From Candidatus Latescibacterota bacterium (GTDB lineage: Bacteria > Latescibacterota > UBA2968), in contig OZ241986.1 of assembly GCA_965204375.1 (NCBI GenBank), positions 1,600,001 through 1,664,000 of the forward strand: a DNA stretch of 64,000 nucleotides, given 5' to 3'. Shown piece after piece: positions 2,243 to 51,001 of the stretch. The notes under the pieces were generated by a model. It had not been told where the DNA came from, made no database searches, and saw only the letters and a program-made list of their open reading frames with translations. Position 1 is the first letter of the stretch, and each line of letters starts with the position of its first letter. Made by a program: the position numbers and the translations under genes.

Positions 2243-5200
2243 ATGAGTAGGCGAGCGAAATCAATAATCTGGATCTTGGTCGGCGCAGGCATTGTGCTGG
2301 GATTAGGGGCAATACTGGTCGCGGGGGGCTATACCAATGGTATTTTGCGCGGGTTGGCGCAACGCGCCCTGTCCTGGCAAGGGGATGAGGTCTGTTTGAT
2401 TGGCGAGGTTCAGGGCAATCCACTGGGGGATTGTCGCATCGTGGATGTGCAGGTTGGAGATTGGGTGCATGTAGATACGCTCGATGTAGAGTACAGTTTT
2501 TGGGGCCTGCTAACAGGGAAGGCTGTGTTTCATCGGCTGAGGTTGTCGGGGATTGAAATGCGGATTGACGCCTCTGATGAAGAGACCGAGACGTCGAGGT
2601 GGGATGTTCCGCCACCCCTGGATTTAGACATCGAGTCGCTGGAGATTGCGGATGCCAATGTCGTAGTTGATGGTACACAAGTGCGCGATATCTCGCTAAA
2701 GGGCGCTATTTTCGCGGGAGAATCTGAGTGCCGTTTGATCCTGGAGCGTTTTCGCTCGGTGCAATTCGATCCGCCGCTGGAGGTGACCAATCTATCTGGT
2801 ATTGCCATTTTGCAGGCCGGTCACTTGCAATTGAACAATGTGGCATTGCACACTCATGGCTCTCGTATTTTATTGAGCGGATTGGTGCGACAATTGGATA
2901 ATCCCGAGGTGGATCTCGTTTTGAAAGCCGATTCTCTATGGCTGGCAGATCTCAGGAATCTGGTCGATCTACCCACACGCGCTGTGCAGGTGCGTGGAAA
3001 CGTGAAAGGAGGGCTGCAATACCTTGTTACAGAATTGGTTGTAAAAGATGAAGAAGTTTTAATTGCGTTTAATGGCGTCATGGGAATTGCACCGTTTGAA
3101 GTGCGCGGAGACGCTGTTTTTGAGATCGAGACACATGATCTCATCTCGTTGGGATACACAGGACTTGATACTGATTTACCTCGTATCAGTACAAGTCTGG
3201 ATGGGATGATCACTTTCGCGGTGGATTCCTCTGGCGTAGAAAATGCCGTTGCTGAGGGTGTTTTTCGGCGCATGCAATTTGGGGATGCGCGGTTCGATTC
3301 CGTGCGTTTTTCCGTCAATTTGGCAAATGACCTGTTGCGAACGCAAGTCACTGCTAATGGGCCAAGCGGCAATATAGTGGGCAATGGGGAAGCGCGGTTG
3401 ACCACTTGGGATGGCAAATGGGAAATGCGATTCCGCGATCTATATGCTGAACATTTACCCGGTGTACCCAAAAAAGTCGGGCGCGTGACGGGGCGTATTG
3501 ATGGTGCGAGATATGTAGATCAACAGCTTTTTATCGATCATTTTGAGACACAATTGCAGAATTGGAGAACGCGCGTCAATGGGAATGGGCAGTTGCATTT
3601 TGAAGGAGAAAAATCGGCTATTGCGGGGAATGTTCAGGCGGAGGTGGCGTTGCCACATTTAACGGGTACAAACAGATGGGGTACATCGCTGACGCTTGCT
3701 GGAAATGTGGATGGCATCACAGGTGACGATTTGATGGTTGAATTGACGGGGAATATCGCGGGCAATGCCGCGGCTGATAGTTTGCATATTTCTGCATTGG
3801 TCAATTCTGAGGGACGATCTGATATTCGCGCGGATCTGTCGGGGACGGGTGGGGTGTTTTCCACTCAGGGGCATATTGATCGGCATTCCGAGGGCCAATG
3901 GCTGATGGATGTACAGGATTTAGAGGCGATAGGTGAGGTGGTGGGTGTGGATTTATCGGGGACGTTGGCCCTATCGGGCACATGGTCGGGAACGTTGGAT
4001 GCGCCTGGTTTTTCTGCACGAGGTAGCGCAGATAGCCTCGTCGTGGCAGGCATTCCGATAGAAAACCTTGCGATAGAGACGCAGTGGGCGCGGCCTGATT
4101 CGGGTGCTATTAACCTGCAAGTGGATCGTTTGATCTGGGGTGAACGTTCATTGCAGGAGGTGTTTTTCGAGGCGGTGTACGCACATGGCGAAACATCATT
4201 TTTGTTGGGTAACGGCGCACAAGTAGATGACCGCATCCTTTTTCGGGGACGCGCAGGGCAAAAAGAAGATTATTTCCAGGTGGCGATGGATTCGCTGTAC
4301 ATTAAGGTCGATCAGGTCGTGCTGCACAACGAAGGGCCTGTTAGATTTGCGTATTCGCCATCTCGGGGCGTTCACATCGGGCATCTGGTGCTTTCTGGCC
4401 CAGCGGGGCGTCTGATTGCGCGGGATCAACAGGGTTTTCAGGCGACTGTGGAAGTGTTGTTAAAAGATCTGGATTTGCGCCCCTGGGCATTTCTGGCGGG
4501 TGCTTCAGGTATGGGGGGTATTCTCAATGGTGAAGTGCTTTTTGCTGGCACATTGACCGATCCCCTTATTTTTATTCATTTCGCGCTTGCAAAGGGCAAA
4601 ATATCGGGTGTGGGATTCGATAGTGCCGCAGGAGAGATGTCCCTGGGCAATGACAGGATACACTTTGAGGTGAAAGTCGTACCCGATGGAGATGAGATGC
4701 TGGCACTGTTTGGCAGTTTTCCCATTGCAGGTACAGGTGATATGCACCTGCGCGCGCGATCTGATGGGATCGCGCTGAGAACGCGCCCGAACCTATCGGA
4801 TGAAAAAACGGAATTGGTCGGGATAAGACGATCCGAGAGATTGACATTTGGCACAGTGCCAAACGCGTTTTTAGGTGCCGCTGAGGGGATTTCAGGGATG
4901 TTATCGTTCGATCTGGAAGCGCGCGGTCGTTTTGAGCAACCGGACATTCGGGGAGTGCTCGAAATTCGAGATGGGGTATTCCGCTTGCCCGATCTGCAGC
5001 GGTCTTACACACCTGTTTCGGGACGTGCTGTGGTTGGCGACGGAAAAATTCAGATTGACAGTCTTTCGATTGGGACTTCGGCGAATCTTTCCGGTGACAT
5101 AATGCTTGAGGGTTTTTTGCCGAACAAATGGAATTTATCTGCGCAATTCCGCGATTTTGAACCGGTGGCCCGGCCCGAACTACAACTCGTGACGGATGGT

Positions 5201-46568: not shown

Positions 46569-47081
46569 GTGGATTTAATGGGCTTTATTCGCGATGTGCC
46601 CGATTTTCCCAAAGCGGGCATTTTGTTTAAAGATATTACGCCTCTGCTCGGCGATGCGGATGCGCTTCGCGCGGCGATAGAACGACTGGCGCAACCCTAT
46701 CGCGATGGGGCTGTCGATCTGGTTGTGGGAATCGAGTCGCGTGGTTTTATTTTTGGGACTGCACTCGCGCGAGAACTCGACGTGGGCTTTGTGCCGATCC
46801 GCAAACCCGGCAAACTGCCAGCAGATGCGATTTCTGCGAAATATGAATTGGAATACGGAACTGATAAGATTGAGATACACACAGACGCAATCGCCAAAGG
46901 ACAAAAAGTCGCGATCGTGGATGATTTGCTGGCGACCGGTGGCACAATGGCTGCTGCGTGTCAGCTCGTATCTGAACTCAAAGGGAAAATTGTCGGTATC
47001 TCTTTTGTCATAGAACTGGGCTTTTTGAACGGGCGCGAAAAACTCGGGGATTGGCCCATTCACAGGCTGGTTCACTATTGA
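46569..47081 (+). CDS. apt: Adenine phosphoribosyltransferase
   Basis: PDFPKAGILFKDI, ESRGF, RKPGKLP, YELEYG, VDDLLATGGT. Confidence 0.95.
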   Translation: MDLMGFIRDVPDFPKAGILFKDITPLLGDADALRAAIERLAQPYRDGAVDLVVGIESRGFIFGTALARELDVGFVPIRKPGKLPADAISAKYELEYGTDKIEIHTDAIAKGQKVAIVDDLLATGGTMAAACQLVSELKGKIVGISFVIELGFLNGREKLGDWPIHRLVHY

Positions 47082-47132
47082 TATTATCATATGTGCCCCT
47101 GTAGCTCAGAGGATAGAGTAGCGGATTCCTAA

Positions 47133-49576
47133 GTGCGCCGCTTCACGGTAGGAGTTCCTACCCAGTAACTGGGTATGAGTTGCAGGATAACTCGTAGATT
47201 AACCGATTCACTGAAATCTGAAAGGAGGAAGGGAAAACAGCATATCGGTAAAGCTGGTGGACAGGACAACCACAAAGAATGTCGCACTGGCAAAATCTGT
47301 ATCCTATGATTAAGGCTAAACTGCTTGAACCTCAACAACCAGTGGGAGAAAACCCGCCTCCTCTTGGAAATGTGGTTGACACCAAGACCTCACAAGATTC
47401 TGAAAGGATTAGGAGTTCAGAATACCTGACAACGTGGGCACGACTTGCAGAGAGCGAGTATAAGGTAGTGAATGAGGAATCTAAGGGATACTAAACGGAA
47501 CTCAGACACGGAAAGCGGGAATACCTAAGTGTCGAGAGACATAAGGTATCGGAGCCTCCGTAGTAGTCAGAGAACGGGAAAGCCGTTTACAAGGCGAAGG
47601 GAGGCAGGTAAGTTCGACTGTAAGGACAAGGAGGGATGCGTAATGCAAACAGCCAAAACTGTTCTTGAGGTCATCCATCGAAGGGGAATGGAAGGTAAAA
47701 CGCTTGAAAGGCTTTACAGGCAATTGTTCAACGAAGAGATATACCTGAAAGCGTATGCGGAAATCTACTCAAACAAGGGTGGATTAACCAGAGGTATTAG
47801 TAAAGAAACGATTGATGCAATGTCAGTTAAACGTATTCATAGCATCATAAAACGTCTCCGAACTGAAACATACCGATGGAAACCAACACGCCGAGAGTAT
47901 ATCCCAAAAAAGGACGGCAAAAAGAGACCACTTGGAATCCTCTCTGGGGACGACAAGATACTCCAAGCTGTTCTTAAAACCCTGCTTGAAGCCTATTATG
48001 AACCGCAATTCAGTGACCGCAGTCACGGATATAGACCGAATAGAGGCTGCCACACAGCACTTCAACAAATTGGTAGAAAACACCATACGGTCAGTTGGTT
48101 CATAGAGGCAGATATAAGAGGCTGCTTTGATAACATCGACCACGACATCTTAATTGATATACTGAGCGATAAAATCAAAGACGGAAGGTTTATACGACTT
48201 CTCAAACATCTTATGAAAGCAGGATATGTTGAAGATTGGAAATGGCATAAGACATATAGCGGAACACCGCAAGGTGGCATCATAAGCCCGCTTCTGTCAA
48301 ACATCTACCTGAACGAATTAGATATATGGGCAGAGAAAGAACTTATGCCAGAATACAATCGTAAGCCAAAAAGCGGTAGGAAGAAAATGAACCCTGAATA
48401 TAAGCGATATGCCTATAAAAGAGGCAACGCCAAAAAGCAGGGCGACTGGAAATCCTACAAACATTACGGAAATCTGATGAAATCACTTCCAACAACGATA
48501 GAAGATGATAACTACCGAAAATTGGAATATATCAGATACGCCGATGACTTTCTGTTAAGTTTCGCTGGCCCTAAAAAGGAAGCTAACGAAATCAAAGAGA
48601 AGATCAGGAATTTTCTCAAGGATAGATTAAGACTTGACCTATCATTGGAAAAAATCCTAATCACTCACGCCAGAACCAAAAAAGCCAAATTCCTGGGATA
48701 CGATCTGCGAGTCAGACAATCACGGGAAAGGCGAGTAGCAAATGGATCAATATGGTTCGGGACACCAACAGAGAGCAAGTTGAGAGCCATAAAGAAATAT
48801 AGGGAGAAAAACAAGGCGAAAGTAAGATTTGAACTGGTCGAACTGAGTGACTATGATATAGTAACGCAGTATCAATCAGAATACAGAGGTCTTGCGAACT
48901 TCTACGTAATGGCTCACAACAGACATACCTTAAACAAAGTAAGGTGGGAAGCGGAAAAATCCCTAATACGGACACTTGCAAGAAAGCACCGAACATCGGT
49001 CAAAAAAACCTATATAAAATATAGGGGCAAGATGAACGGTCATGCGGTGATAAAGGTGCAAGTAGAAAGAGAAGGGAAAGACCCACTAACCACATACTTT
49101 GGAGGAATTTCCCTGAAGAGAAACCCATACGTAAAGTCTATAAAAGACGAGTACACGAACAATTGGATCAAAAGAAGTCAGCTTATAGAGAGACTACTGG
49201 TAGACCAATGTGAAATGTGCGGACAAGTGGGGAATATCGAAGTCCATCACGTAAGAAAGCTAAAAGATGTGAACATACCGGGAAAGAGGAACAAACCCGC
49301 TTGGGTGCATCGAATGGCAGCTATCAGACGTAAAACTCTGATGACCTGCGTAAAATGTCATAAGGCAATACACGCAGGTAAACACCTTACGGAATGGGAT
49401 GTATGGAAGAACTTACTGGAGAGCCGTGTGCATTGAAAGGTGCAAGCACGGTTCGGAGGGAGGGTGCAGGAAAAGTGACCTAAATCCGTTTTGGTTTGAC
49501 TACGATGGAGCTAATATAGCTCTCTAGTGGACAACCAAAACGGCATTAGGTCAAACTCGCTTGCTCCCTACCCTAC
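47133..49576 (+). mobile_element. Group IIA intron (LtrA/ML-like), 2,444 nt
   Basis: 5' GTGCG; domain V GAGCCGTGTGCATTGAAAGGTGCAAGCACGGTTC (49421-49454); 3' end CCCTACCCTAC with branch A at -7 (49570); EBS1 hairpin 47397-47423. Confidence 0.95.
47643..49436 (+). CDS. ltrA: Intron-encoded reverse transcriptase/maturase with HNH endonuclease (597 aa)
   Basis: SD AAGGAGG; KRPLGI, FIEADIRGCFDNI, GTPQGGIISPLLSNIYL, YIRYADD, FLGY; C-terminal CEMC...EVHH...CVKCH. Confidence 0.95.
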   Translation: MQTAKTVLEVIHRRGMEGKTLERLYRQLFNEEIYLKAYAEIYSNKGGLTRGISKETIDAMSVKRIHSIIKRLRTETYRWKPTRREYIPKKDGKKRPLGILSGDDKILQAVLKTLLEAYYEPQFSDRSHGYRPNRGCHTALQQIGRKHHTVSWFIEADIRGCFDNIDHDILIDILSDKIKDGRFIRLLKHLMKAGYVEDWKWHKTYSGTPQGGIISPLLSNIYLNELDIWAEKELMPEYNRKPKSGRKKMNPEYKRYAYKRGNAKKQGDWKSYKHYGNLMKSLPTTIEDDNYRKLEYIRYADDFLLSFAGPKKEANEIKEKIRNFLKDRLRLDLSLEKILITHARTKKAKFLGYDLRVRQSRERRVANGSIWFGTPTESKLRAIKKYREKNKAKVRFELVELSDYDIVTQYQSEYRGLANFYVMAHNRHTLNKVRWEAEKSLIRTLARKHRTSVKKTYIKYRGKMNGHAVIKVQVEREGKDPLTTYFGGISLKRNPYVKSIKDEYTNNWIKRSQLIERLLVDQCEMCGQVGNIEVHHVRKLKDVNIPGKRNKPAWVHRMAAIRRKTLMTCVKCHKAIHAGKHLTEWDVWKNLLESRVH

Positions 49577-49615
49577 TCCGTTGGTCGCAGGTTCGAGTCC
49601 TGCCAGGGGCACTTT

Positions 49616-51001
49616 GAGGTATATTCAAAAGTTGTGGATGAGTAAAAGAAAAGAGCGTATCCTATAGTATCACAAAAACCTAAAATCCCTCCAGGAGGGA
49701 GAAAGGACACGCTCGTGAAAGAATATACCCCATTTGAAGTGGAAAGCATAGTGCAAGATACACTGGCCGAGAGCCTCGAAGAAGTCATAAGAAATGGTGC
49801 GCGTAAGATGTTATGTGCCGCCTTGCGGTATGAAGTGAATGAATACATAGCCCGATTTGCTGATCAGGTGGATGAAAAGGGTCATCGTGAGGTGGTCAAA
49901 AATGGGTATCATCCTGCCCGAGAAGTCACCACTGGTATTGGTAAAATACCCGTCAAACAACCCCGCGTTCACGATCGTCGAGACGGGGAGCACTTCACCA
50001 GTGCGATCCTGCCTAAATATGCCCGTCGCAGTCCGAGCATTGATACATTGATCCCCACACTGTATCTGAAAGGGGTCTCTACCTCAGCCTTTCCCCAGGC
50101 ACTCGAAGCGATCCTCGGCAAAGGCGCACCAGGGCTTTCACCAGCCAATATCACGCGCTTAAAGCGTATTTGGGAAGACGAGTATAAACAATGGCAAAAG
50201 CGCGACTTGCACGATAAAGCCTATGTCTATATCTGGGCAGACGGTATCTATTTTAACGTACGCCTGTCTGATGATCGCCCCTGTGTTCTCGTGCTCATTG
50301 GTGCCACAGCAGAAGGTAAAAAGGAAGTCCTTGCCATAGAGCAGGGACAGCGTGAGAGCACCTTATCTTGGAAAACCCTCTTACTGGATGTCAAAGCACG
50401 CGGGTTGCGCCTTGCCCCTGCTCTTGCCATAGGCGATGGGGCAATGGGCTTCTGGCACGCATTGGAAGAGACATTCCCTGCCACGAAACATCAGCGCTGC
50501 TGAGTGCATAAGAGTGCTAATGTGTTGGATAAGCTACCCAAATCTGTGCAGCCGGATGCCAAGAGACTCCTTCAAGATATGTATCAGTCGCCGACAAAAG
50601 AGGCCGCGCACAAGGTCTATGACCACTTCTTGAGTCTGTATCAGGATCGCTATGAAAAAGCCTGTGACTGCCTCACCAAAGATTTTGAGGTGCTCTTCAC
50701 CTTTTATGATTTTCCTGCCAAACACTGGATCCATTTACGCACCACCAACCCGATTGAATCGACTTTTGCTACCGTCAGGCATCGCACGAGGCAGACAAAA
50801 GGCTGCGGATCGGTCAAAGCCACAATGGCGATGGTGTATAAACTGGCTCTTGAAGCTGAAAAAACATGGGTCAGATTACGCGGTTACAAGCTCATACCCC
50901 TCGTCATTGACGGGGTGAAATTCGTAGATGGTGAACGCAAAATCGCTGCATAATCATAAAGGATGCGTTCTAAACCCATCCACAACATTTGACAATATCT
51001 C
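49616..51001 (+). mobile_element. IS256-family insertion sequence, 1,386 bp
   Basis: 28-bp imperfect TIRs (GAGGTATATTCAAAAGTTGTGGATGAGT vs rc GAGATATTGTCAAATGTTGTGGATGGGT); 9-bp direct repeats GGGCACTTT at 49607-49615 and 51002-51010. Confidence 0.93.
49715..50953 (+). pseudogene. IS256 transposase with one in-frame stop (TGA 50501-50503)
   Basis: KNGY, PRVHDRR, LYLKGVST, YIWADG, IGDGAMGFW, QRC*VHK (family motif QRCWVHK), RTTNPIES; both halves in one frame. Confidence 0.9.

Follow-up and report, generated by a model that had tools for sequence, protein, structure and literature searches.

Ll.LtrB, a group II intron found in Lactococcus lactis, resides in a gene for a conjugative relaxase and encodes LtrA, a protein in which reverse transcriptase (RT), maturase domain X and HNH endonuclease follow one another. 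Here we describe an element with the same domain order, with its open reading frame (ORF) likewise in domain 4 and a delta sequence likewise beside exon-binding site 1 (EBS1), which splits a tRNA-Arg(CCU) gene of a Candidatus Latescibacterota bacterium. The element lies in a stretch of 64,000 nucleotides (contig OZ241986.1, positions 1,600,001 to 1,664,000; hereafter the window), which is part of the one-contig 6.34-Mb genome (G000) of a sponge- or coral-associated bacterium. It differs from Ll.LtrB, with which it was compared at the protein level, in its host gene, a tRNA, and it has an additional hairpin of about 78 nt in domain 6.

tRNA genes split by group II introns are familiar from chloroplasts. 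In plastid trnK, a IIA-type intron with a maturase ORF occupies the tRNA anticodon loop and has to be spliced, an arrangement shared by the window; its protein MatK is described as RT-degenerate, no longer has mobility or RT motifs 0-4, passes on by vertical inheritance and acts for several introns (PMC4424553). The red-algal plastid gene trnMe is likewise a tRNA gene with a maturase-encoding group II intron and differs from the window, as far as its description goes, in being organellar and confined to florideophytes; plastid trnL carries a group I intron according to the same source (PMC13578239).

The tRNA introns described for bacteria are of another kind. Alpha-proteobacteria have group I introns in tRNA-Arg(CCU), and cyanobacteria have them in tRNA-Leu(UAA), the same hosts as in the window and in a second locus (L061) described below; both kinds of intron are self-splicing and sit in the anticodon loop (PMC2504315, PMC4033280). 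They nevertheless belong to an unrelated ribozyme class, as the window intron is a group II intron with a reverse transcriptase. PMC4853749 and PMC2504315 report tRNAs of bacteria that contain group I introns, tRNA-Arg(CCU) being among those referred to. PMC4033280 presents bacterial tRNA introns as group I, gives group I alone for bacteria in its table, and devotes one sentence to group I and II introns at 37/38, for which a plastid paper is cited. Most bacterial group II introns are stated to avoid housekeeping genes, in which only some introns of the ML and CL lineages reside (PMC4424553), and the tRNA passages of PMC8919778 name no bacterial tRNA host. A group II intron residing in a tRNA gene of a bacterium was met nowhere in the full-text passages covered, a scope that leaves aside papers behind subscription, the curated database of introns and tables in supplements. 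As set out below, it is quite probable that a complete and still mobile ML/IIA intron recently retrohomed into the anticodon loop of the sole tRNA-Arg(CCU) gene of this genome, between nucleotides 38 and 39.

A tRNA-Arg(CCU) gene split by a group II intron

Two exons and the intron between them lie on the same strand.

47095..47132, plus strand: tRNA-Arg(CCU) exon 1, 38 nt (ARAGORN, run both on the joined exons and, allowing introns, on native DNA)
47133..49576, plus strand, same as the tRNA: group II intron, ML/IIA type, 2444 nt (5' GTGCG, 3' ...CCCTAC; Rfam; ARAGORN)
49577..49611, plus strand: tRNA-Arg(CCU) exon 2, 35 nt (sequence, ARAGORN)

Exon 1 comprises the 5' strand of the acceptor, the D arm, the 5' strand of the anticodon stem and the whole anticodon loop TTCCTAA. 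It ends in ...GCGGATTCCTAA at 47132 and is followed by the intron 5' end GTGCG from 47133. Exon 2 starts with TCCGTTGG directly after the intron end ...CCCTAC at 49576 and contributes the 3' strand of the anticodon stem, the variable loop, the T arm, the 3' strand of the acceptor and A73; CCA is not encoded. The exons joined in silico were called by ARAGORN as tRNA-Arg(cct), a canonical cloverleaf with the anticodon CCU. On native DNA with introns allowed, the program reported i(39,2444), which denotes an intron after nucleotide 38.

An earlier note, made from the letters of the window alone, had placed the split between positions 38 and 39, and the ARAGORN results on joined and native DNA agree with it. 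It had also expected standard finders to miss the gene, which proved true for the two tools run: default ARAGORN found 0 tRNAs in the 64-kb window, and Rfam at gathering thresholds returned Intron_gpII at 49419-49576 as the sole match in the window and no tRNA. A covariance-model search of the intron had been suggested in the same place; the Intron_gpII match (RF00029, domains 5 and 6) reached 60.5 bits against a cut-off of 40 and covered model positions 1-77 of 77.

Anatomy of the intron RNA

The following elements were located within the intron.

47354..47357, plus strand: candidate EBS2, CCGC (pairs with exon positions -12 to -9, GCGG; from the alignment of related introns)
47406..47416 (intron positions 274-284), plus strand: EBS1 and delta, hairpin loop GGATTAGGAGT (complementarity scan; local fold)
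49421..49454, plus strand: domain 5, 34 nt, with AGC triad, 2-nt bulge and GAAA loop (RF00029 match; minimum-free-energy (MFE) fold)
49476..49553, plus strand: extra domain 6 hairpin, palindromic, about 78 nt long (self reverse-complement match; fold)
49570, plus strand: bulged adenosine of domain 6, candidate branch point (MFE fold of the last 165 nt)

The ends follow the GUGYG / AY boundary rule of group II introns, with GTGCG at 47133 and ...CTAC at 49576, and the 5' 528 nt can be aligned along their whole length with eight related introns. The EBS1/delta loop is complementary to exon positions -8 to +3 (ATTCCTAA|TCC) in an unbroken run of 11 bp, 8 bp of which belong to EBS1 and 3 bp to delta. 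The delta sequence GGA, located immediately 5' of EBS1, pairs with bases +1 to +3 of exon 2. A delta-delta' pairing beside EBS1, rather than a separate EBS3, serves as a criterion for IIA introns.

A complementarity scan for at least 6 nt detected no EBS2 upstream of intron-binding site 1 (IBS1), and the 4-bp candidate came only from the alignment. CCGC stands where two related introns, L041 (AACCA with TGGTT) and L052 (TCGGG with CCTGA), pair with their own exons, so that the three introns together make it a candidate EBS2. With this element included, the pairings of the exon-binding loops (EBS2, EBS1 and delta) cover an uninterrupted 15 bases at the splice site, from -12 to +3.

In the MFE fold, which is a prediction only, A49570 is bulged 7 nt before the 3' splice site. 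The span from domain 5 to the 3' end amounts to 158 nt here. In the 19 relatives for which it was determined it ranges over 76-134 nt, with 16 values falling within 90-99 nt. The extra domain 6 hairpin is absent from the closest relatives and has no other copy in the genome. The G+C content of the intron (43.5% versus 50.8% for the genome) is consistent with a foreign origin.

The intron-encoded protein

47643..49436, plus strand: intron-encoded protein, 597 aa, with RT, maturase X and HNH endonuclease (Pfam; LtrA match)

The start of this ORF was set by alignment with 24 homologues, and a Shine-Dalgarno-like AAGGAGG is found upstream. Pfam matches were obtained to RVT_1 (2.7e-37, profile positions 1-204 of 205), Intron_maturas2 (2.2e-12) and an AI2M-like HNH domain (2e-12), and the translation contains YADD. 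LtrA of Lactococcus was the best match among solved structures (E 4.6e-117; query 5-576 against LtrA 5-594 of 599), the next one reaching only 8.6e-40. On the basis of the LtrA match, the domains and the delta beside EBS1, the element is assigned to the LtrA-like ML/IIA introns. The full-length LtrA match thus bears out the earlier classification as a IIA intron, and the three domain matches support the statement that RT and HNH endonuclease are intact.

Arginine codons of the intron ORF are AGA or AGG in 34 of 54 cases (11 AGG, 23 AGA), as compared to 15.6% in the long ORFs of the host. Translation of the maturase may thus itself make use of the tRNA-Arg(CCU) that its intron splits.

Uninterrupted genes in relatives and the sole copy in the host

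The gene upstream of the split tRNA is its conserved neighbour in related genomes and served, together with exon 1, as the query for the corresponding sites; its stop codon lies 13 nt upstream of the tRNA.

46569..47081, plus strand: apt, adenine phosphoribosyltransferase-like gene (Pfam Pribosyltran, E 6.3e-18)

In a search of 41 genomes (G000 and 40 relatives), the query of apt and exon 1 matched in 39. Thirty loci were retrieved from these matches, one of them being the truncated locus of G000 itself, and the comparisons use the other 29. All 29 carry an uninterrupted tRNA-Arg(cct) beside apt at the same place, which indicates that the insertion is recent. The full intron was found in G000 only and in none of the 40 relatives, three of which show partial, distant matches.

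The joined exons were identical to the tRNAs of L010-L029 (20 genomes) at 70-73 of 73 positions, several of them at 73/73, and to that of L030 at 65 positions. The tRNAs of L031-L038 are 75 nt long, and the positional count of 18/73 obtained there is an offset artefact and not divergence. Agreement at 70-73 of 73 positions with the tRNA-Arg(CCU) of relatives puts the reading as a split tRNA far beyond chance. The exons are undecayed, with up to 73/73 identity. The exact 15-base target (-12 to +3) is present in 29/29 relatives and the exact stretch from -25 to +10 in 15/29.

In the whole G000 genome, ARAGORN detected 50 tRNA genes, among them arginine tRNAs with the anticodons ACG, CCG, UCG and UCU, once each, and no second tRNA-Arg(CCU). 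A second intact copy was sought in G000 and not found, which confirms the split gene as the sole one; mature tRNA-Arg(CCU) is therefore obtainable only through splicing. AGG accounts for 7.0% of the arginine codons and 4.7 per 1000 codons in 1802 ORFs of at least 400 codons, a frequency at which the tRNA is in demand. The intron itself is single-copy in G000.

Contigs from metagenomes and RNA libraries

Among 24 sequencing runs listed, 20 runs from 10 studies contain all or some of the stretch. In 14 of the 24, one half or more of the words sampled were present, and 6 of the 20 containing runs are recorded as RNA. The window was compared with the contigs of four runs, three of them metatranscriptomes and one of DNA, uncovered stretches being uninformative. 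In X5, a sponge metagenome that belongs to another study, a DNA contig of 2504 nt spans 47103-49606 with 3 differences and includes 30 nt of each exon. Loose contig ends of the same run indicate that uninterrupted versions co-occur with the intron-bearing one.

Intron RNA is represented in the RNA libraries, as contigs in three metatranscriptome runs cover parts of the intron. One of these RNA contigs (582 nt, depth 41.7, 17 differences) starts exactly at intron base 1, which is a weak hint of excised intron RNA. Four exon-exon joints were inspected as candidates for a spliced product. Three of them have other letters between the two sides and belong to other tRNAs. The sole exact 47132-49577 joint (X17) lies on a 231-nt contig that departs from the window in apt and exon 1, with 12 mismatches and 2 gaps in 141 nt, and most likely comes from a diverged congener with an uninterrupted gene.

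Related introns and their host genes

The intron protein has a large family, with 7999 of 8000 scored candidates being homologues. A cluster of at least 90% identity comprises 24 members from several assemblies, and the next best match is 72% identical. Many relatives sit on contigs of 2.4-2.7 kb. Among genome contigs, the best 80 loci are led by metagenome-assembled genomes (MAGs) of Caldilineaceae with 53-64% protein identity, and metagenomes scanned with the alignment of the protein yielded 64 loci, of which the best reached 59% identity. At none of these 64 loci did ARAGORN, run with introns permitted, call a tRNA, and many of their contigs end near the intron and leave flanks too short to judge. 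Within the phylum, the intron protein was matched at E <=1e-60 in 8 of 168 genomes, G000 included, and 0 of 10 loci examined in the phylum-wide search lie inside a tRNA.

Boundaries of the related introns were set from Rfam 3' ends together with EBS/IBS checks. The nearest relatives (59-64% protein identity), L039 (2442-4887) and L052 (994-3416) from Caldilineaceae MAGs, split ssb at the same codon (...GNLG(R/N)DPEMR|(Y/H)). Their downstream exons match Pfam SSB from profile position 18 or 19, with E values of 1.4e-21 and 1.9e-22. The metagenome locus L119, of which only the 3' flank is available, has an SSB-like flank. The ssb introns L039, L052 and L119 resemble the window intron in that they occupy a conserved host gene, can be aligned over the 5' half of the ribozyme and fall into one starred clade with it; they differ in having the ssb coding sequence as target, and their EBS1 loops differ accordingly. 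As ssb is generally essential, the residence of the nearest relatives inside it implies that introns of this clade splice well in vivo. The L041 intron splits a solute-binding-protein-like ORF, for which the Pfam match is below the cut-off, and the introns of other relatives reside in other protein genes.

Some related loci may have a composite structure. In L198 (G146:C1:2312029-2315417), a related intron protein is present in two pieces of 65% and 55% identity with about 1.6 kb of inserted DNA between them, which may be a nested insertion. A second Intron_gpII domain 5/6 match or a second intron 5' end occurs within a few kb at L052, L060 and L120 and suggests tandem or nested copies.

Two further bacterial tRNA genes with group II introns

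In-silico excision at all plausible boundary pairs of 154 related loci yielded 20,063 joins, which were submitted to ARAGORN. A tRNA across the junction appeared at 2 of the 154 loci, L061 and L051.

L061:2441-4955 stems from a MAG labelled Candidatus Poribacteria and contains an ML-type intron of 2427 nt (GTGCG...CTCTAC) inside tRNA-Leu(UAA), with an intact protein 43% identical to that of the window and an EBS1/delta match of 11 bp. The intron is placed between U34 and A35, which we take to be the site of the ancient cyanobacterial/plastid group I intron of tRNA-Leu(UAA). The tRNA-Leu(UAA)/tRNA-Met pair is uninterrupted in 14/14 relatives of the L061 genome. A search of the L061 MAG for a second tRNA-Leu(UAA), made with the tRNA-Leu(UAA) of G000, found only CAG, CAA and AAG isoacceptors. 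When the L061 intron was sought in the phylum of G000, matches were confined to weak RT segments and to the tRNA-Met in its flank.

L051:2373-4908, from a Ktedonobacteraceae MAG, has its intron (2464-4900) in the 3' acceptor strand of tRNA-Sec (...CATACAC|CTCTGCCA). The protein is 49% identical to that of the window, and 9 of 10 EBS1/delta positions match. Without excision, ARAGORN still calls a tRNA-Sec at this locus by borrowing the first intron bases. The program found complete tRNA-Sec genes at 14 loci in 13 relatives of the L051 genome, and in the 7 of these genes inspected there the 3' end CATAC(G/A)CCTCTG runs continuously across the L051 site. A second tRNA-Sec in the L051 genome was searched for with a G000 query that was too diverged and missed even the split gene.

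In a quick maximum-likelihood tree of 61 intron proteins, the window protein belongs to a starred clade of five rows together with Caldilineaceae rows. The three tRNA-resident introns (window, L061 and L051) fall into three separate groups of this tree, which argues for independent invasions. We are inclined, by a small margin of confidence, to the view that bacterial LtrA-like introns repeatedly colonise tRNA genes as splicing-dependent residents, with three independent recent cases in three genomes.

Neighbouring elements

49715..50953, plus strand: IS256/Mutator-family transposase outside the intron (two in-frame ORFs with one stop codon between them; Pfam Transposase_mut)

The two halves of this transposase, just downstream of the split tRNA, match Transposase_mut profile positions 12-253 and 256-377, and the frame is interrupted by an in-frame stop at 50501-50503. 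Metagenome depth climbs sharply over 49715-50953, which suggests a multi-copy element. A second RT ORF of G000 lies 2.3 Mb away on the minus strand (L192, G000:C1:3937672-3939336) and is 40-43% identical to the intron protein. It is preceded by a sequence ending in ...GGGGATTGAAAC, which resembles a CRISPR repeat, and is followed directly by another ORF, with no obvious domains 5 and 6; it could be a CRISPR-associated or domesticated RT.

Discussion

The window intron has the anatomy of a complete ML/IIA element, occupies the sole tRNA-Arg(CCU) gene of its host, is a recent arrival, matches its target in the exons and is present as RNA in RNA libraries. Its splicing is likely, judged from the sequence. 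The tRNA precursor would be transcribed, probably jointly with apt, which ends 13 nt upstream. The intron protein would be translated from domain 4 and bind the intron as a maturase, while EBS1 (8 bp), delta (3 bp) and EBS2 (4 bp) would grip exon positions -12 to +3. The bulged A49570 would then attack the 5' splice site, and exon ligation would restore the TTCCTAA loop and the anticodon stem, before the tRNA is finished by RNase P, 3' trimming and CCA addition. Presumably still mobile, the lariat and its protein could reverse-splice into empty tRNA-Arg(CCU) genes, whose target is conserved in relatives.

Several observations weigh against a recently retrohomed and functionally spliced intron. 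No spliced junction of this strain was present in the contigs of the three metatranscriptome runs and the one DNA run; contigs cannot establish RNA ends, and carry-over of DNA into RNA libraries is possible. As the insertion is recent, the undecayed exons are weak evidence for selection, and not one of the 29 relatives with the exact target has acquired the intron. EBS2 comprises only 4 bp, and the unusual hairpin of about 78 nt in domain 6 may affect branching. Finally, the tRNA-Arg(UCU) of G000 could decode AGG by wobble, which would make a non-splicing insertion tolerable. The locus might be a dead end, in which splicing is poor or absent, the cell is in effect without tRNA-Arg(CCU), and AGG falls to tRNA-Arg(UCU) by wobble. 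Such an outcome would fit an insertion that is recent and absent from 40 relatives, the missing strain-matched junction and the atypically large domain 6 hairpin, and the CCU isoacceptor is dispensable in E. coli. We regard it as unlikely, since the catalytic and exon-binding elements are all intact, as is the maturase ORF, and AGG, at 4.7 per 1000 codons, is not rare. Moreover, tRNA-Arg(CCU) is conserved in 29/29 relatives, the same allele was recovered from the metagenome of another study, and the sister introns reside in ssb. A misassembly at a repeat that placed the intron into the tRNA gene is scarcely credible: short-read assemblies do break at intron ends, and many relatives are found on contigs of 2.4-2.7 kb, but here the intron occurs just once in a 6.34-Mb genome that consists of one contig, an independent contig from a metagenome runs from 47103 to 49606 and takes in 30 nt of each exon, and the EBS1/delta loop fits exactly this junction.

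The earlier note had gone further and regarded the element as a tRNA-homing specialist and a possible model for the ancestor of plastid trnK/matK. A lineage of this kind would be in line with exon-binding sites that fit an anticodon arm identical in 29/29 relatives, with two more ML introns inside tRNA genes and with a domain X that matches Pfam Intron_maturas2. It is nonetheless improbable. The nearest relatives (59-64%) split ssb, the clade of the window intron otherwise holding ssb-resident introns, and others lie in other protein genes; the proposed search for tRNA halves around homologues gave tRNA hosts at only 2/154 loci, both in other clades, and the quick tree separates all three tRNA-resident introns. 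Spread among kin was not observed either, as the intron is present in 0/40 relatives although 29/29 keep the exact 15-base target. With respect to MatK, the window protein retains YADD and the HNH endonuclease (compare PMC4424553 for the RT motifs lost in MatK). The insertion is strain- or species-specific, at site 38/39, and neither a degenerate RT without endonuclease nor fixed vertical inheritance, the marks of a MatK-type intron, was found. The window intron is thus an ordinary, presumably mobile member of the ML introns that recently took a tRNA as its new target. It does not represent a tRNA-specialised or MatK-like lineage, and to MatK it offers an analogue at most and no ancestor.

An organelle-style arrangement can, on the preferred reading of recent retrohoming, arise directly from an ordinary retrohoming event, and annotation pipelines can wrongly call such a tRNA missing. 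The locus offers a tractable system in which to study, by splicing assays, the coexistence of group II splicing with the folding of a tRNA and its processing by RNase P, as well as retrohoming into a universally conserved target. It suggests that the species-invariant anticodon arms of tRNAs make favourable targets for the homing of retroelements, just as for that of group I introns. Wider in reach, and of more interest, is the recurrence of such tRNA invasions in bacteria. If true, recurrent colonisation would provide a natural starting state for trnK/matK-like arrangements and the first counterparts, in bacteria, of the group II introns in organellar tRNA genes.

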